From an uncultured Haliscomenobacter sp. (lineage in GTDB: Bacteria; Bacteroidota; Bacteroidia; Chitinophagales; Saprospiraceae): a stretch of DNA of 36,161 nt. The notes beneath the pieces were generated by a model. That model had not been told where the DNA came from. It saw only the letters and a program-made list of their open reading frames with translations, and did not search any database. Position numbers and translations under genes: made by a program. The stretch is from the NCBI GenBank assembly GCA_964527495.1, contig CAZGOT010000002.1, positions 1,740-37,900 of the forward strand, in the 5' to 3' direction. Below, one piece after another: positions 1 through 36,161 of this stretch. The stretch's first letter is position 1; every line of letters begins with the position of its first letter.

Positions 1-60
1 ATATTATTAATTAATCATATTATGATCAATTATTTTATGGTAAATTATCTAATGACCCCA

Positions 61-143
61 TTCAAAACTTTCTTTCGCCGCCGAAAGCGGCGGAATACTT
101 TTTACACAACCCCTGAAGGGCCAGGGGCTTTTTACACAACTCC
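61..143 (+). repeat. Mosaic palindromic intergenic repeat, locus 1 (B2 hairpin + A' box, then small hairpin + second A' box)
   Basis: 61-113 reads ttcaaaactttctttCGCCGCCgaaaGCGGCGGaataCTTTTTACACAACCCC. A second CTTTTTACACAAC lies at 128-140, preceded by the hairpin cccctg/cagggg. The same unit recurs at 6759-6811 and 17044-17084. Confidence 0.85.
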
Positions 144-164
144 GGAATAAAAATCCATCCTGCT

Positions 165-3095: not shown

Positions 3096-3111
3096 CCCAG
3101 GGCACCCCCAC

Positions 3112-3196
3112 GGGGTTGTATAAAAAGGCCGGAGGCCGTCCTTTGGCGGCTGACGCCGCCAAATAATATTTAAACTTTGTGGGGGTGTGTAAAAAG
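3112..3196 (+). repeat. Mosaic palindromic intergenic repeat, locus 2 (A box, small hairpin, B1 hairpin, degenerate A box)
   Basis: GGGGTTGTATAAAAAG at 3112-3127; gccggaggccgtcc at 3128-3141; TTTGGCGGCtgacGCCGCCAAA at 3142-3163; GGGGGTGTGTAAAAAG at 3181-3196. Confidence 0.85.
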
Positions 3197-4155: not shown

Positions 4156-4361
4156 TTTGCCGCCATCGTAGGCGACATAATAATTTTTTTTGGAGTTGTG
4201 TGAAAAGGCTGAGGGCCATTATTTGGCGGCTGACGCCACCAAATGTTATTTTGAATGAACGACGTTTTGCCTCATTTTGCTTTGCAAAATGAGGCAAAAC
4301 GTCGTTCATTCAAAATTTTCTTTCGCCGCCGAAGGCAGCGGAATACTTTTTACACAACCCC
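4156..4361 (+). repeat. Mosaic palindromic intergenic repeat, locus 3 (B-like remnant plus one full ~170-bp A-S-B1-C-B2-A' element)
   Basis: A-like GGAGTTGTGTGAAAAG at 4192-4207. B1 TTTGGCGGCtgacGCCACCAAA at 4222-4243. C hairpin arms at 4251-4280 and 4284-4313, perfect 30 bp, extendable to 33. B2 TTTCGCCGCCgaagGCAGCGGAA at 4321-4343. A' CTTTTTACACAACCCC at 4346-4361. Confidence 0.9.
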
Positions 4362-4390
4362 AAAAAAAGAGAGCAGCCTGAAGGCTGCTC
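4362..4390 (-). terminator. Rho-independent terminator of fsa
   Basis: Stem-loop gagcagcc-tgaa-ggctgctc at 4371-4390, 43 nt past the fsa stop. On the minus strand it is followed by TCTTTTTTTG. Confidence 0.7.
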
Positions 4391-4433
4391 CCCAAAATTT
4401 GATATATAGATAACCTCTGTCCAAAAGAAATAA

Positions 4434-6465: not shown

Positions 6466-6499
6466 AACTCGTTCGTTTTTATCGTTTTTCCATTTAAAA

Positions 6500-6811
6500 T
6501 TTTGTGGGGGTATCCCGAAAGTATGGGGTTGTGTAAAAAGGCCGGAGGCCGTCCTTTGGCGGCTGACGCCGCCAATAATTATTTTGAAGAGGTTGTGTAA
6601 AAAGCCCCCGGCTTTTCATTTGGCGGCTTGCGCCGCCAAATGTTATTTTAAACAGACGTCATTTTCATTGATTTTGCTTCGCAAAATCAATGAAAATGAC
6701 GTCTGTTTAAAATAACATTTGGCGGCCGTAGGCGGCGGAATACTTTTTACACAACCCCTTCAAAACTCTCTTTCGCCGCCGAAGGCGGCGTAATACTTTC
6801 TACACAACCCC
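6500..6811 (+). repeat. Mosaic palindromic intergenic repeat, locus 4 (densest cluster: A-S-B1, a full A-S-B1-C-B-A' element, then a B2-A' unit)
   Basis: A boxes at 6525-6540 and 6591-6604. B1 at 6555-6575 and 6619-6640. Perfect palindrome arms at 6632-6677 and 6681-6726 with loop ttc. A' at 6743-6758. The B2+A' unit at 6759-6811 is nearly identical to 61-113. Confidence 0.92.
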
Positions 6812-7842: not shown

Positions 7843-7937
7843 TTTTTTTGAACGCTATTTTTGTTGCTTTTGCTTGTAAAGCCAACAAAAATAGCGTTCA
7901 AAAAAATTATTCTGCCACCGAAAGCGGCAGAACACTT
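7843..7937 (+). repeat. Mosaic palindromic intergenic repeat, locus 5 (variant C hairpin + variant B2 hairpin)
   Basis: 24-bp perfect arms at 7843-7866 and 7883-7906 (tttttttgaacgctatttttgttg / caacaaaaatagcgttcaaaaaaa) with an apex containing ttttgcttg. This is followed by TCTGCCACCgaaaGCGGCAGAA at 7911-7932. The inverse of that B2 variant is seen at 36113-36135. Confidence 0.8.
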
Positions 7938-8103: not shown

Positions 8104-10353
8104 TTATCTTTTTTTATCATGGTCATCCCGACGGTCGCGGTCATCCCGACGATCGCGACGGTCGCGGTCATCGCGGCGCGGCGGCTGGTCTTCCCCTCCT
8201 TCTTCCTGTTTGCCCTGCCCACTCTTTTGCGGAGGAGGAAGAAGGGCTTTTCTCGAAAGGCGGAGTTTGCCCGTTTTTTTGTCCACTTCGATCAGTTTGA
8301 CCTTTACCTCGTCGCCTTCTTTGAAATGCTCTTCTACGTTTTCGATTCGGGAATGGGAAATTTCCGAAACGTGCAGCAGGCCGCTTTTGCCATTGAACTC
8401 GACAAAAACACCATAGGGCATTACAGATTTCACTACGGCGCGGTACACATCGCCTACTTCCGGGACGAAAGTAATCTTGCGGATGCGCTCCAGAGCAGCT
8501 TCAATAGAAGCTTTATCGCTGCTCGCTACGTTGACAACCCCTTTATCCCCTACTTCAGTGATATTGATAATTGTACCCGTTTCGGCCTGAATTTCCTGAA
8601 TAACTTTTCCGCCTGGGCCGATAACCGCGCCAATGAAGCTTTTATCAATCGTGATTTCTACAATCCGTGGAGCATGCGGTTTGTAATCTTCGCGTGGTGC
8701 GGCGATTACTTCCTGCATTTTTCCCAGGATATGGAGGCGACCCCGGCGGGCTTGTTCGAGGGCTTGTTCCATGACCTCATAAGGCAACCCGTCCACTTTG
8801 ATGTCCATCTGGCAACCAGTAATCCCAACTTCCGTGCCGGTCACTTTGAAGTCCATATCGCCCAGTGCATCCTCATCGCCCAGGATATCGCTGAGGACAG
8901 CCATGCGCTTGCCATCGGAAATCAGGCCCATTGCTATACCTGATACTGGCCTTTTAATCTGGATACCAGCATCCATCAAAGCAAGAGATCCTGCACAAAC
9001 CGTTGCCATTGAAGAGGATCCGTTGGATTCCGTAATATCTGAAACCACGCGTACAGTATAGGACAGTCCTTCGGGTAGCACCTTGCGCAGCGAGCGGGCG
9101 GCAAGATTTGCATGGCCCACTTCCCTGCGTCCGGGGGCGCGTTGTGGCTTCACCTCGCCAACCGAATACCCCGGGAAGTTGTAGTGCAGGAGGAATTTTT
9201 CGAAAGTCAATGCCTGGGCATTTTCCTGCATTGCCTCGTCAAGCTTGGTACCAAGGGTAACCGAAGTAAGGGATTGCGTTTCGCCACGGGTAAAGATAGC
9301 GGAACCATGGGTACAAGGGAGGTAATCCACTTCGCACCAGATATCGCGGATATCCTCAAGCCCCCGGCCATCAAGACGACGGCTTTCACTCAGGACAAGC
9401 TCCCGGACAACCTTCTTTTTAAGTTTGTCAAGGATTTCTCCAATGAGCTTTTTCTTTTCCGAAAGGTAGGCCTCGCCATGTTCGGCCAGTAAAGTTTCTA
9501 CCACCTTCACCTTCACTTCTTCGAAAGCAGCACGGCGAACCTGCTTTGCCGAGGCTTCCGCAGCAATTGTGTAGTATTTATCTTTAGCCAGCAGCTCAAT
9601 TTTGGCTTCAAGTTCCGGATCGGAGACCATTACAGGTGCTGCACGTTTTACCAGTGCCTTTTCCCCTACCAATTGTGCCAGGCGAAGCTGGGCTTCGATC
9701 TGTACTTTTATTGCTTCGTGCCCTACCCGGATGGCTTCGATCATTTCTTTTTCGGAACACTCTTTCGCCTCTCCTTCTACCATAACGACATTATCCGCAG
9801 TAGCCCCTACGATAAAATCCATGTCGGCAGTAGCAAGCTCCGACTTAGATGGGTTAATGCGGTATTCCCCGTTGATACGGGCCACACGCACCTCTGAAAT
9901 CGGCCCCTGGAAAGGAATATTCGATACCGATAGCGCGGCAGAGGCAGCAAGTGCTACCATGCAATCGGGCAAGGTATCCTTTTCAACAGAAATCAGGTTG
10001 ATAATAACCTGGGTGTCGTACATATAACCATCTGGGAAGAGGGGGCGGATTGCCCGGTCAACCAATCTGGATATCAGTACTTCATAATCGGAAAGCTTCG
10101 TCTCCCGGCGGAAAAAGTTGCCCGGGATACGTCCTGCGGAAGCGAACTTCTCCTGATAGTCAACCGAAAGTGGAAAAAAGTCTTGCCCTTCCCGCATTTC
10201 TTTGGCCGACACTACGGTCGCAAAAAGCATGGTGTTGCCGCAGCGCAATACCACGGAGCCGTCTGCCAAGGCAGCAATCTTGCCTGTTTCAATGGTTACC
10301 TCACGTCCGTCCGACACGTGGAAGGATGTTGAAATTGGAATCTGTTGTCCCAT
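8104..10353 (-). CDS. pnp: Polyribonucleotide nucleotidyltransferase (PNPase) with an Arg/Asp-rich C-terminal tail
   Basis: 749 aa with two RNase PH-like regions, KH and S1 regions (GDVYRAVVKSVMPYGVFVEF). Located immediately downstream of rpsO, as in many bacteria. Confidence 0.95.
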   Translation of the reverse strand: MGQQIPISTSFHVSDGREVTIETGKIAALADGSVVLRCGNTMLFATVVSAKEMREGQDFFPLSVDYQEKFASAGRIPGNFFRRETKLSDYEVLISRLVDRAIRPLFPDGYMYDTQVIINLISVEKDTLPDCMVALAASAALSVSNIPFQGPISEVRVARINGEYRINPSKSELATADMDFIVGATADNVVMVEGEAKECSEKEMIEAIRVGHEAIKVQIEAQLRLAQLVGEKALVKRAAPVMVSDPELEAKIELLAKDKYYTIAAEASAKQVRRAAFEEVKVKVVETLLAEHGEAYLSEKKKLIGEILDKLKKKVVRELVLSESRRLDGRGLEDIRDIWCEVDYLPCTHGSAIFTRGETQSLTSVTLGTKLDEAMQENAQALTFEKFLLHYNFPGYSVGEVKPQRAPGRREVGHANLAARSLRKVLPEGLSYTVRVVSDITESNGSSSMATVCAGSLALMDAGIQIKRPVSGIAMGLISDGKRMAVLSDILGDEDALGDMDFKVTGTEVGITGCQMDIKVDGLPYEVMEQALEQARRGRLHILGKMQEVIAAPREDYKPHAPRIVEITIDKSFIGAVIGPGGKVIQEIQAETGTIINITEVGDKGVVNVASSDKASIEAALERIRKITFVPEVGDVYRAVVKSVMPYGVFVEFNGKSGLLHVSEISHSRIENVEEHFKEGDEVKVKLIEVDKKTGKLRLSRKALLPPPQKSGQGKQEEGGEDQPPRRDDRDRRDRRDDRDRRDDHDKKR
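8121..8178. repeat. Short in-frame tandem repeat inside the pnp 3' end
   Basis: ggtcatcccgacggtcgc (8121-8138) and ggtcatcccgacgatcgc (8139-8156), then partial units. They encode the RRDDRDRRDRRDDRDRRDD part of the PNPase tail. Confidence 0.8.
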
Positions 10354-14012: not shown

Positions 14013-14051
14013 AAAGGAATTGTTTTATATTTGTACTTTGTATAGAAATAG

Positions 14052-14130
14052 AAGGTTGTGTAAAAAGTTGGGGGTTGTGTGTAAAAAGTATTTCGCCTCC
14101 GAAGGCAACGAAAGGCTTTTTACATAACCT
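14052..14130 (+). repeat. Mosaic palindromic intergenic repeat, locus 6 (A box, then a mini-element A-B2-A')
   Basis: AAGGTTGTGTAAAAAG at 14052-14067; GGGGTTGTGTGTAAAAAG at 14071-14088; TTTCGCCTCCgaagGCAACGAAA at 14091-14113; CTTTTTACATAACC at 14116-14129. Confidence 0.8.
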
Positions 14131-14167
14131 CATAATTTTTTTACCCCCCGGCAAACAATGGCAACAA

Positions 14168-16793: not shown

Positions 16794-17084
16794 TTTTTTG
16801 GGGTTGTCCCAATAGTATGGGGTTGTGTAAAAAGGCCTAGGGCCGTCATTTGGCGGTTGACGCCGCCAAACAATATTTTGAACGCACACTGTTTTCATTG
16901 ATTTTGCTTCGCAAAATCAATGAAAACAGTGTGCGTTCAAAATTTCCTTTCGCCGCCGAAGGCGGCGGAACACTTTTTACACAACCCCTTTTTAATATTC
17001 TTTGGCGGCTGACGCCGCCAAATGTCATTCGTTCAAAATTTTATTTCGCCGCCGAAAGCGGCGGAATACTTTTTACACAATCCC
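16794..17084 (+). repeat. Mosaic palindromic intergenic repeat, locus 7 (pre-module, one full 170-bp element, then a core-less B1-B2-A' element)
   Basis: A at 16819-16834; B1 at 16849-16870; C arms at 16875-16907 and 16911-16943 (perfect 33 bp, loop ttc); B2 at 16948-16970; A' at 16973-16988, a perfect complement of A. Second unit: B1 at 17001-17022, B2 at 17044-17066, A' at 17069-17084. Confidence 0.92.
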
Positions 17085-24246: not shown

Positions 24247-24355
24247 CGTTTTTTACATGCGCTAAATAGTTAATGGGATAAACTTAGCGCAACCAGGACG
24301 TTTTGCCTATGATTTTCGTCACCTGAAAAGGAAAATTTATACCTCTCGCATTCAT

Positions 24356-24441
24356 ATTCCGCCACCTGCGGCGACGAAAGAAAGTTTTGAAGAGGCTGTT
24401 CGAAAAGTCTTTTGGCGGCTTGCGTCGCCAATAATTATTTT
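24356..24441 (+). repeat. Mosaic palindromic intergenic repeat, locus 9 (inverted B2 unit, degenerate A box, B1 hairpin)
   Basis: 24356-24390 attccgccacctgcggcgacgaaagaaagttttga is the reverse complement of a B2 unit. Then gaggctgttcgaaaag (degenerate A). Then TTTGGCGGCttgcGTCGCCAA at 24411-24431 followed by taattatttt, as at 6555-6585. Confidence 0.8.
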
Positions 24442-24541
24442 AGGACAGGATCCATCATAACTCCTTCCCTCAACCATTCCCTATATTTGGGGTTAAGTCA
24501 AAAATGGGTTGCCTGGGCAGCGCAGCTACTCGAAAATAGCA

Positions 24542-26440
24542 ATGAAGGAACTGAAAGAATTATTCGAACTGCAGGAACTCCTGCAACTGGAGAAAGCGGA
24601 AGACTTTGAAGCTTACAAGCGCAAAATGGAACGCCTACCGCTTCCTGCCAGGCGAAAAGAGGGCTATGCCTGGTTTCCCCTGAAAATAATCCAGAAAGGA
24701 TATGCCATTGGTGAAAGGGCTTTTGTAGTGGTGGAAAGGACTGTACTCCAGGGGGAGGCACATCAGTTCCGCCCAGGTAAATCCGTTACCCTCTTCTCCA
24801 TGGCACCACACGAGCGGAACCCCGATCGGGGCGGAGTAGTATACTTCGTGGATAAAGACCGGATGAAAATTATCCTCCAGGCCCGGGATTTTCCCGACTG
24901 GTTAGAGAATGGCCAGGTCGCTGTACAAATCGCCTTTGATGAACGCACCTACCAGGAAATGGAAAAGGCACTGAACAAGGTCATCACAGCAAAAAAAGGG
25001 CGATTGGCGGAGCTTCGGGCTATTTTTCTTGGGGAAAAGCCCGCATCCTTCTACCCTTTAGGGCCCGTTCCGGATATTCCCCGGTTGAACGATTCCCAAA
25101 AAAAAGCCGTACAGCAAATTCTCTCCGCCCAAGACCTTGCACTCGTCCATGGACCACCAGGTACGGGAAAAACAACTACGCTGGTCCAGGCAGTCCGGCT
25201 ACTTTGCCAAACGGAACAAACCGTATTAGTTACCGCTCCCAGCAATACCGCTGTAGATTTACTGACCGAACGCCTTTTTGAGGAAGGGTTAAACGTAGTG
25301 CGCGTGGGTAATATTTCCAGAGTTGAAGAAGGCCTCTTGCAACACACGCTCGATGCATTGGTCGCCCAACATCCGGAAAGCCGAAATATTCGGAAAATAA
25401 AAGTCCGGGCTGCCGAGCTCAGGCGACAAGCGCAGCGCTATCGCCGCCACTTTGGCGCAGAAGAGCGCCAGGAAAAACAAGACCTCTGGCAAGAGGCGCG
25501 CGAACTTGCTGCCTGGGCCAACCAGATGGAAGAGCGCCTGATCGAACAAATCCTCGATACCGCACAGGTCATCACCTGCACACTGGTAGGGGCTGCCCAT
25601 CCTGTACTTGAAAATCGGAAGTTCCGTACCATAGTAGTGGATGAAGCTGCACAAGCGCTCGAGCCTGCCACCTGGATTCCCATTAGTAAAGCCTCCCGTG
25701 TAGTACTCACGGGTGATCCCCACCAACTGCCCCCCACCGTGAAATCGCTGGAAGCTGCCCGTAGGGGCCTGAATATTACCCTCATGGAAAAATGCCTGCA
25801 ACAGTCCATGGAGGCAACCCTCCTGGATGTCCAGTACCGCATGCACCAGGCAATTATGGGGTTTTCCAACCAATATTTCTACCAAAACCGCCTCCAGGCC
25901 GACCCCTCCGTTGCCGCACGCAGTTTGCCCGCTGGCGACAAACGCCCCCTTCTGTTTATTGACACTGCAGGCTGTGGCTTTGAAGAACAAGTCAACCCCG
26001 CATACCAAAGCCGCTTTAACCCGGATGAGTTCCGCATCCTTTGCGAACACCTCTATTTTTTCGTAGATGCGTTTGTGGAAAAAGAATATCCTTCGGTAGC
26101 TATTATCTCTCCCTACCGGGAACAAGTGGCCTATATGCAGGAACATCTGGCAAACGATACACTGCTCCAAAAGCTCCCTATCGAAGTAAATACGATTGAT
26201 GGCTACCAGGGACAGGAAAAAGATGTGGTCTATATTTCATTGGTGCGCTCCAACTCCAAAGGGGATATTGGGTTCCTCCAGGACTTCCGCCGCATGAACG
26301 TGGCCATGACCCGGGCCAGGAAACAACTCGTGATTATAGGGGATAGCGCCACTATCTGCCGCTCCCCGTTTTATGTCGCCCTGGTGGAATATTGCGAGCA
26401 GTTCGGTGCCTGCGAAACGGCATGGGACTATATGATGTAA
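24542..26440 (+). CDS. Superfamily 1 helicase, Upf1/IGHMBP2-like (DNA2/NAM7 family)
   Basis: Walker A GPPGTGKTTT, motif II VVDEAAQ, motif III LTGDPHQLPPTV, QYRMH, motif V TIDGYQGQEKDVVYISLVRSN, motif VI RRMNVAMTRARKQLVIIGD. I prefer the ATG at 24542 (MKELKELF) over the upstream track start. Confidence 0.85.
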   Translation: MKELKELFELQELLQLEKAEDFEAYKRKMERLPLPARRKEGYAWFPLKIIQKGYAIGERAFVVVERTVLQGEAHQFRPGKSVTLFSMAPHERNPDRGGVVYFVDKDRMKIILQARDFPDWLENGQVAVQIAFDERTYQEMEKALNKVITAKKGRLAELRAIFLGEKPASFYPLGPVPDIPRLNDSQKKAVQQILSAQDLALVHGPPGTGKTTTLVQAVRLLCQTEQTVLVTAPSNTAVDLLTERLFEEGLNVVRVGNISRVEEGLLQHTLDALVAQHPESRNIRKIKVRAAELRRQAQRYRRHFGAEERQEKQDLWQEARELAAWANQMEERLIEQILDTAQVITCTLVGAAHPVLENRKFRTIVVDEAAQALEPATWIPISKASRVVLTGDPHQLPPTVKSLEAARRGLNITLMEKCLQQSMEATLLDVQYRMHQAIMGFSNQYFYQNRLQADPSVAARSLPAGDKRPLLFIDTAGCGFEEQVNPAYQSRFNPDEFRILCEHLYFFVDAFVEKEYPSVAIISPYREQVAYMQEHLANDTLLQKLPIEVNTIDGYQGQEKDVVYISLVRSNSKGDIGFLQDFRRMNVAMTRARKQLVIIGDSATICRSPFYVALVEYCEQFGACETAWDYMM

Positions 26441-26445
26441 AATGC

Positions 26446-26492
26446 AGGAAGCCTTTTTTCCTTTTGCCGGGCAAAAGGAAAAAAGGCTTCCT
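26446..26492. terminator. Long hairpin immediately after the helicase stop (terminator-like)
   Basis: aggaagccttttttccttttgcc / ggcaaaaggaaaaaaggcttcct, a perfect palindrome of about 23 bp starting 6 nt after the TAA at 26438-26440. There is no clean downstream U-tract. Confidence 0.5.
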
Positions 26493-26500
26493 ACATTTGG

Positions 26501-26646
26501 ATATTTGGCGGCTTGCGCCGCCATAGAATATTTTTTTAAAACGCTTATTTCATTGATTTTGCTTCGCAAAATCAATGAAATAAGCGTTTTAAAAAATTTT
26601 ATGGGTTCGTGTAGAAAGGACGGAGGCCGTCCTTTTTACACGAACC
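26501..26646 (+). repeat. Mosaic palindromic intergenic repeat, locus 10 (B1, C hairpin, then an A-S-A' hairpin)
   Basis: B1 TTTGGCGGCttgcGCCGCCA at 26504-26523. C arms at 26532-26562 and 26566-26596 (perfect 31 bp, loop ttc). A-like GGGTTCGTGTAGAAAG plus gacggaggccgtcc plus TTTTTACACGAACC forms a 20-bp stem (26604-26623 / 26627-26646, one G-T) that ends 5 nt from the gldN stop. Confidence 0.88.
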
Positions 26647-35982: not shown

Positions 35983-36161
35983 ATTTTTGAAAAGGCTTTT
36001 TGAAAAGTCTGAGGTTGTGTAAAAAGTATTTCGGGGTTGTGTAAAAAGCCCCCGGCTTTTCATTTGGCGACTTGCGCCGCCAAATGTTATTTTAAAGAGG
36101 CTGTCGCATTAGTGTTCTGCCGCCTTCAGCGGCAGAATAAAATTTTTTCAGAGCGGCCTTT
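35983..36161 (+). repeat. Mosaic palindromic intergenic repeat, locus 11 (two A boxes, S, B1, then an inverted variant-B2 unit; truncated by the window end)
   Basis: A boxes at 36010-36025 and 36032-36047. cccccggcttttcaTTTGGCGACttgcGCCGCCAAAtgttattttaaa at 36048-36095 is almost identical to 6605-6652. TTCTGCCGCcttcaGCGGCAGAA at 36113-36135 is the inverse of the unit at 7911-7932. Confidence 0.88.

Follow-up and report, generated by a model that had tools for sequence, protein, structure and literature searches.

A mobile intergenic repeat of Saprospirales with a hypervariable, mostly perfect central palindrome whose arms may be copied from one another

The window analysed here is a stretch of 36,161 nucleotides from an uncultured Haliscomenobacter sp. 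(contig CAZGOT010000002.1 of assembly GCA_964527495.1). It is ordinary Bacteroidota chromosomal DNA that includes gldL/M/N, PorP/SprF, PFOR, PNPase, rpoD, cmk and ETF genes. Among named organisms, Haliscomenobacter spp. come closest, their sigma factor being 89% identical. Ten intergenic loci in these 36 kb carry combinations of a few sequence modules: A (GGGGTTGTGTAAAAAG plus its inverse), B (TTTGGCGGCTGACGCCGCCAAA), B' (TTTCGCCGCCGAAGGCGGCGGAA), a small GGCC hairpin, and C, the long central hairpin that is the subject of this work. The A modules behave as terminal inverted repeats, and the complete unit is a non-coding element of about 155–175 bp. A terminal repeat, G(G/A)GGTTGTGTAAAAAG, lies at one end and its inverted copy at the other; between them the long central palindrome has a GC-rich hairpin on either side, and these two hairpins differ from each other. 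The terminal repeats GGTTGTGTAAAAAG and CTTTTTACACAACC occurred 184 times in 380 kb of related sequence, where the left-to-right spacing, measured from start to start, showed sharp peaks at 140–142 and 149–159 nt; two further conserved bases lie beyond each repeat, giving 16 bp in all. The complete element at locus 3 has the stop codon of a PNP-family gene (4137) on one side and the transaldolase gene's native terminator on the other. Located downstream of the transaldolase gene, at 4368–4393 on the minus strand, the terminator consists of a GC-rich hairpin and a T-run. This terminator is also conserved in the orthologue of the Deming metagenome-assembled genome (MAG), where no element sits, which indicates that the element inserted between the PNP-family stop and the terminator. 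An earlier reading of the window, made from its letters alone (hereafter the sequence-only reading), had found the hairpin, which is real, but had not recognised its place as the core of a mobile element bounded by terminal inverted repeats.

A repeat search of the window returned, at locus 3, two 33-nt arms (4248–4280 and 4284–4316) that are 100% complementary and separated by a 3-nt loop. Homologous hairpins are present at loci 4, 7 and 10 (Table 1), and each left arm quoted in the sequence-only reading for these four loci was indeed followed, 3 nt downstream, by its exact reverse complement (33, 46, 33 and 31 bp for loci 3, 4, 7 and 10). The apex CATTGATTTTGC-TTC-GCAAAATCAATG was found in three window copies, again as had been described, and the apex motif was counted four times in the window against 0.05 expected. 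The whole locus-3 element folded with −65 kcal/mol (z = −11.3). The hairpin pattern is far above chance. At locus 4 the outermost 13 bp of the hairpin overwrite the left half of the B' hairpin. At locus 7 the perfect inner 33 bp belong to a wider repeat of 46 nt at 89% (16862–16956), and the right arm of the C hairpin has the same sequence in an independent assembly (L184). At locus 10 the C hairpin lies between a B hairpin (26505–26523) and a short A/A' foldback (26604–26646). Locus 5 has a degenerate apex and diverged GC hairpins on its flanks; a perfect 24-bp stem exists there, as had been claimed, but in another register, the quoted arm GAACGCTATTTTTGTTGCTTTTGC having no exact reverse complement nearby. 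The statement that every change is mirrored in the opposite arm is therefore not literally true.

Further copies were gathered by anchoring on a 6-mer in one arm together with the 3-nt loop, the other arm being free to differ. A scan of a genome collection with a half-palindrome pattern found the family chiefly in the MAGs Saprospiraceae Deming_bin.580 and Lewinellaceae bin-112, and an independent set was obtained from a metagenome scan that required just the two terminal repeats. Over 27 positions the number of arm mismatches was bimodal, with 0–7 in the element class and 12–27 in the background. In the first set (n = 106 copies) 73 copies were perfect, 14 had one mismatch and 9 had two, whereas the independent set contained 26 perfect copies out of 35, with every mismatch at the apex or the outer boundary. 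The union comprised 134 copies with up to four mismatches, taken from the window, the two related MAGs and metagenome contigs; 98 of them were perfect over 27 bp and about 27% kept mismatches. Copies with uncompensated mismatches were therefore a minority, and not the majority that the sequence-only reading had associated with a chance sample of very young copies.

This symmetry is accompanied by extensive divergence. The left arms of different copies differed on average at 10.5 of 27 positions and the two arms within one copy at 0.52, and the 73 perfect copies of the first set represented 59 distinct arm sequences. In an ungapped alignment of 101 copies 98.4% of the pair cells were Watson-Crick or G-U, compared with 68.1% in shuffles, and only 37–43% were paired when the partner was slid by 1–3 columns. 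Changes on both sides were observed in 22 of the 27 pairs (690 such cells). Relative to the subfamily consensus, 279 differences were mirrored in the other arm and 41 were not, and between nearest-neighbour copies the figures were 194 and 85. These counts bear out the argument of the sequence-only reading that independent drift of the arms cannot yield perfect symmetry across diverged copies. The copies are inverted doublets that form a hairpin with a compensated centre, the arrangement by which repetitive extragenic palindromic (REP) sequences and the hairpins formed by their doublets (REPINs) are recognised.

One important question is how the two arms remain complementary while their sequence changes. 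The sequence-only reading had left selection on the hairpin and regeneration of one arm from the other side by side; our evidence leans to templated regeneration, owing to the scarcity of G-U pairs, the presence of the loop in both orientations, the outward extension of the palindrome in two strain pairs, the unshared mismatches, and the 59 perfect sequences found against 33 imperfect copies. Hence, we guardedly favour the reading that the arms are kept exactly complementary at the DNA level, by templated copying of one arm from the other. One arm would be synthesised from the other by intrastrand template switching at the hairpin during replication (a quasi-palindrome correction of the Ripley type) or, by an alternative route, through hairpin-templated synthesis at the time of element copying. 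A mutation, often a CpG transition, would arise in one arm and would then be either erased or copied onto the other, so that the arm sequence would drift about as fast as the adjoining spacers while the stem remained perfect. The same kind of event would invert the 3-nt loop and would occasionally push the palindrome into the flank. The anatomy and mobility of the element, its symmetry, the loop inversion, the outward-extension polymorphisms and the confinement of each mismatch to one copy are observed; the enzymology, as well as the moment at which symmetry would be restored (in place or at copying), we infer from these patterns.

In 33 aligned full elements the flanks were conserved and asymmetric. 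Relative to such flanks, the loop read GAA in 12 copies and TTC in 11 in one subfamily (6 and 16, respectively, in another), and copies with identical arms were seen in both orientations. By contrast, the loops of the 5–6-bp GC hairpins were never inverted in the 33 aligned elements. The stem-extending polymorphisms came from two pairs of nearly identical strains. A G at window position 6724 gives the 46-bp stem of locus 4, whereas the 99.8%-identical strain L174 has a C and a stem of 43 bp; similarly, an A at position 7848 of L141 gives a 40-bp stem, whereas the 99.78%-identical L189 has a C and a stem of 36 bp. Both stem-extending bases depart from the canonical flank and equal the reverse complement of the other arm, and the palindrome extension at locus 4 destroys the B' hairpin. 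Among the mismatch sites 57 of 66 were distinct, and the shared ones were at the apex or the stem boundary. Mismatches are therefore private to single copies, indicating that imperfect copies do not propagate as such. CpG positions make up 15–22% of the arm in the two large subfamilies but about 40% of the mirrored variants, which are mostly transitions; this excess is a hint that mutations arise mainly through methylation and deamination of cytosines.

Selection for mobilisation would act differently: only perfectly folding single-stranded DNA hairpins would be copied by a putative transposase, turnover would be fast, and mirrored variants would arise by two-step compensation. Similar selection has reportedly been proposed for REPINs with REP-associated tyrosine transposases (RAYTs) or for IS200/IS605 ends. 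The conservation of apex and loop across genomes and subfamilies suggests a recognition site, in favour of this explanation; the mismatches, private and at a rate near that of flank singletons, look as if copies were born perfect and then decayed, and the elements are clearly mobile. However, by our own estimate two-step compensation rescues approximately 1 in 160–180 mutated copies, and dead single-arm mutants should thus outnumber rescued ones by about 160–180 to 1. Instead, the 59 distinct perfect arm sequences of the first set exceed its imperfect copies (33 of 106), which makes ordinary two-step compensation unlikely. Within subfamilies, nucleotide diversity (pi) was 0.15–0.19 in the outer arms, 0.16–0.26 in the spacers and 0.04–0.16 in the conserved modules; the outer arms therefore keep pace with the spacers rather than lagging behind them, and are more diverse than the conserved modules. 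The inversion of the loop relative to the flanks is left unexplained by whole-strand transfer. Nor does selection for mobilisation account for the stem-extending polymorphisms, of which the one at locus 4 disrupts the B' hairpin. No transposase was found among the window genes or between terminal-repeat pairs. Taken together, selection for mobilisation is an unlikely source of the symmetry, although not a negligible one.

Conserved across genomes and subfamilies, the apex (7 bp, loop TTC) is probably a nucleation or recognition point. A dedicated fold-back or rolling-hairpin-like rebuilding at each copying, nucleated at the TTTYGC-TTC-GCRAAA apex, is a speculative version of templated copying to which we give somewhat less credence than to selection for mobilisation; such rebuilding would go with a hypervariable yet always symmetric core in a conserved scaffold and with a scrambled loop orientation. 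Two other candidates were rejected. Foldback of one end over the whole element is contradicted by the two GC hairpins beside the core, which are not mirror images, and an operator for a dimeric protein by the paired positions, which vary freely in sequence.

A function at the RNA level would fit the location of all five C-containing loci of the window downstream of at least one gene; transcripts would carry the hairpin as a terminator (intrinsic or bidirectional), as a stabiliser of 3' ends or as the precursor of a small RNA, and compensatory evolution would keep the stem. In addition, A/T runs flank the stems, and several B/B' hairpins as well as the locus-4 C hairpin were classed as terminator-like in a simple scan. 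Nevertheless, one-sided changes to a G-U pair amounted to about 8 cells against the 690 two-sided ones, far from the G-U tolerance of terminators, and among mismatches G:T (15) showed no excess over A:C (23); the rarity of G:T pairs disfavours selection at the RNA level. Nor is the placement that of terminators, since the spacers of divergent genes hold 15 of 64 copies, compared with 32 of 156 of all spacers. With the crude gene calls of our open reading frame (ORF) model, C copies were distributed over 33 tandem, 16 convergent and 15 divergent spacers (98, 26 and 32 for all spacers). One mismatch in a stem of at least 30 bp would barely alter RNA stability, making selection on each copy implausible. 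The window had no match in Rfam 15 at the gathering score, and a relaxed threshold gave only sub-threshold look-alikes of microRNA precursors. An RNA function is on these grounds improbable as the cause of the symmetry.

Slightly more improbable still is that the sample consists by chance of young copies, each derived from one of many perfect masters, with nothing maintaining the symmetry. Insertion has been recent, elements being absent from relatives, and the mismatch rate resembles that of flank singletons, both of which favour this explanation. But the problem is merely moved to the masters, of which at least 59 distinct and perfectly symmetric ones would be needed, and mirrored changes prevail even between nearest neighbours (194 against 85). 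As for an assembly artefact, in which simplification of the de Bruijn graph makes the arms seem symmetric and leaves the loop in random orientation, many contigs of MAGs and metagenomes do end at the apex and, by our reasoning, k-mers shorter than the arm leave loop orientation ambiguous in the graph, but we find it hardly credible, because the pattern is common to the window, a SPAdes-style ENA assembly (NODE_..._cov_...), a MAG with k141_ contigs and JGI assemblies, independent assemblies agree base for base including the loop (window/L174/L184, L197/L215, L200/L212 and L191/L195), and the roughly 27% of copies that retain mismatches show that variants were not collapsed wholesale.

Several observations weigh against the copying of one arm from the other as we have described it. 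Strain orthologues were retrieved by exact-protein look-ups; as the contigs mostly ended inside elements, the comparison covered loci 4 and 5 and one half of locus 7. No two-arm change was detected among about 13 C loci in strains 99.8–100% identical; there was no loop flip either, and one single-arm C-to-T change was found. The arm mismatch rate, 0.019 per pair, is near half of what flank singletons predict in the absence of correction (2 × 0.017 per site), and correction in place therefore cannot be fast. Much of the perfection may come from copies that were born symmetric, are still young and decay near the ordinary rate, and symmetrisation may occur mainly at element copying rather than continuously in place. 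Furthermore, the symmetric domain stops sharply at 27–33 bp in nearly all copies, which fits a discrete unit as well as replication slippage. This sharp limit, together with the conservation of the apex across genomes, implies some selection on recognition or nucleation of the hairpin. Every sequence was taken from a short-read assembly, of a MAG or a metagenome, in which contigs often break at the apex. Finally, a chimeric central module persists in two metagenome samples (L207, 13028–13193, and L208, 2000–2165). Its arms, unrelated to each other, belong to two subfamilies (…GCCGCGTTTTCAACGATTTTGC on the left, GCAAAATCAGTGAAAACAGTGTTGGCTC on the right) and meet at the conserved apex, as if two elements had recombined. 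In a decayed copy, three clustered base differences separate L141 (7909–7913) from the 99.78%-identical L189, and the L141 bases are those of the neighbouring element, at a distance of about 170 nt; either gene conversion involving the adjacent copy or a chimeric assembly may account for them. The chimeric copy and this multi-base change point to recombination between copies as well.

The repeat has spread through the intergenic DNA of some Saprospirales (Bacteroidota). It is mobile, as evidenced by its presence in one genome and absence at the same site in a related one, and it resembles REPINs and also MITEs, the miniature inverted-repeat transposable elements. The region syntenic to loci 2 and 3 in a Saprospiraceae MAG (L167) has no element and retains the native transaldolase terminator, and loci 4 and 5 correspond to short element-free spacers in relatives with a sigma factor 96% or 89% identical. 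In the closest relatives the locus-4 spacer has 58 nt and no cluster. Two MAGs that are syntenic at 84–86% identity carry elements in the same spacers, each from the subfamily of its own genome. The flanks of 63 complete elements revealed no consistent target-site duplication, only an enrichment of T/A at −3 and +3. A parent transposon was also sought between distant terminal repeats; the sole kilobase-spaced pair (in the window plus L107–L173) encloses topA.

The same 14-bp terminal repeats also surround quite different cores (L190, L192, L193, L203, L205, L211 and L213, on JRYF01 and ORJL01 contigs, and L194). One of these alternative cores is a 176-bp family with nested inverted repeats of its own, and another is a palindrome built of GAATTGGT-type heptamer repeats. 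The terminal repeats, occurring around unrelated cores, thus define a superfamily with exchangeable cores. A plasmid collection gave no match to the element. The full element was likewise absent from viral contigs, where a short apex pattern gave chance matches only and a longer apex pattern gave only unrelated hairpins, including palindromes in giant-virus MAGs. The contigs L043, L070 and L105, from giant-virus MAGs, contain unrelated perfect palindromes of 18–25 bp with the apex GATTTTGC-TTC-GCAAAATC; the shared apex is probably a coincidence.

The features of the window are listed in Table 1. The complete element of locus 7 spans 16819–16988, and the unit that adjoins it without a C hairpin is probably a copy whose palindrome was deleted. 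Beside locus 10 there is a separate near-perfect 29-bp hairpin (26440–26498, one mismatch and a 1-nt loop), which overlaps the stop codon of a helicase-family gene (ORF 24509–26440); it is probably this gene's own terminator rather than a part of the repeat family. A 27-nt tandem duplication with 89% identity (8125–8178) was noticed within the C-terminal coding region of the PNPase gene.

Table 1. Positions of the repeat elements, central hairpins and module-only loci in the window
Feature	Position	Strand	Description
Complete locus-3 element	4192..4361	.	Left repeat GGAGTTGTGTGAAAAG, B hairpin 4223-4241, C hairpin, B' hairpin 4324-4340, right repeat CTTTTTACACAACCCC
Locus-3 C hairpin (feature of the finding)	4248..4316	.	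Perfect 33-bp arms, loop TTT
Locus-4 cluster of element units	6494..6811	.	A at 6525-6540, 6589-6604, 6743-6758, 6796-6811; B/B' hairpins 6556-6574, 6620-6638, 6774-6790
Locus-4 C hairpin	6632..6726	.	Perfect 46-bp arms (6632-6677/6681-6726), loop TTC
Locus-5 C hairpin, degenerate	7843..7906	.	Perfect 24-bp stem 7843-7866/7883-7906, then 1-nt bulge, 4 bp, 7-nt loop
Locus-7 C hairpin	16875..16943	.	Perfect 33-bp arms (16875-16907/16911-16943), loop TTC; within the complete element
Unit adjoining locus 7, without C hairpin	16989..17084	.	B hairpin 17002-17020, 9-nt right-arm remnant GTTCAAAAT, B' hairpin 17047-17063, right repeat
Locus-10 C hairpin	26532..26596	.	Perfect 31-bp arms (26532-26562/26566-26596), loop TTC
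Module-only locus	46..148	.	B' and A-right copies, no C hairpin
Module-only locus	3109..3196	.	A, GGCC hairpin, B, A; occupies the spacer between cmk and the PNP-family gene
Module-only locus	14046..14137	.	A, A, B', A-right
Module-only locus	24343..24441	.	Variant A module and B hairpin; spacer of divergent genes
Module-only locus	35985..36130	.	A, A, B, variant A, GC hairpin; at the end of the window

The closest known entities are REPINs and, also close, bacterial MITEs. REPINs (REP doublets) have conserved inverted ends and a less conserved, pairing centre in which compensatory changes are described as common, and their proposed mobility involves a single-stranded hairpin intermediate (Bertels & Rainey 2011; PMC3116915). 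They share with the present family a high copy number, intergenic location, lack of coding sequence, conserved inverted ends and a variable centre that pairs. The family differs in its 16-bp terminal repeats, in its two extra and non-equivalent GC hairpins, in its host phylum, Bacteroidota, and in longer, mostly perfect stems with a conserved apex and an invertible loop. A REP is defined as an imperfect palindrome of 20–40 nt with a GTAG or CGTC tag at one end (PMC3733652). No such tag was recognised on reading the B, B' and C modules, a reading that included no systematic motif scan, GTAG appearing only as an occasional variant of the B' loop. Neither was a RAYT (Y1 HUH transposase) gene present in the window, the element-bearing loci covering about 0.6 Mb in all.

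Bacterial MITEs, such as the Correia/NEMIS, ERIC and RUP families (review: PMC10969869), resemble the element in size (150–175 bp here), terminal inverted repeats, lack of coding capacity, many copies and presence or absence between related genomes, and also in that the same terminal repeats flank different cores. Of the features by which a MITE is recognised, those found were terminal inverted repeats on a short unit (<~300 bp) that has no coding sequence, exists in many copies and occurs in one genome while missing from the orthologous site of a related one. On the other hand, no target-site duplication could be defined and no parent insertion sequence is known. The core, moreover, is hypervariable but keeps its perfect symmetry, unlike an ordinary MITE, which drifts evenly along its length. 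The bacterial interspersed mosaic elements (BIMEs) of Escherichia coli are mosaics of palindromic units and linker motifs. They are similarly modular, several kinds of hairpin module being combined in the spacers between genes, at times in part or in tandem, but their module sequences are unrelated and they are without a long perfect central palindrome. Integron attC sites are hairpins of conserved structure and variable sequence that are recognised as folded single strands, with extrahelical bases and R/L boxes, and adjacent to an integrase and cassette arrays. The resemblance lies in the conserved hairpin structure and highly variable sequence of these recombination sites; unlike them, most stems of the present family are perfect and without bulges, and neither extrahelical bases nor cassette arrays were seen. 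No integrase is encoded in the window, which holds housekeeping genes only, and R/L boxes were not searched for.

Template switching at quasi-palindromes homogenises the arms and inverts the spacer (Ripley 1982; PMC8604942; PMC7202029). As in our elements, it predicts identical arms, short loops that are inverted when the arms are long, and palindromes extended to match the other arm. It differs in being a general mutational process known at single loci, whereas here it is proposed, from sequence comparison, for a whole mobile repeat family. What sets the family apart from those described is the combination, in Saprospirales, of a hypervariable core with mostly perfect arms of about 30 bp each, a conserved apex, an invertible loop and a conserved asymmetric scaffold.

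REPs, REPINs and MITEs are widespread, and hairpins that remain intact despite divergence are usually ascribed to selection without a test. The present family constitutes an unusually clean data set for this question, with well over 100 copies whose stem is long, mostly perfect and changing at what looks like a neutral rate, with loops that can invert and with polymorphisms that extend the stem. It also has a practical side, because MAG and metagenome contigs (L107–L173, L174, L184) very often end within a few bases of the apex, which amounts to systematic breaks in short-read assemblies of Saprospirales. A dedicated hairpin-templated rebuilding, if true, would be a previously undescribed mode of propagation for a bacterial chromosomal repeat. 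If the copying of one arm from the other is confirmed, covariation in DNA repeats would need caution before being used as evidence of RNA structure, and a whole family of bacterial mobile repeats would prove to be shaped by the kind of concerted evolution between palindrome arms that has been described for large palindromes and at single loci.

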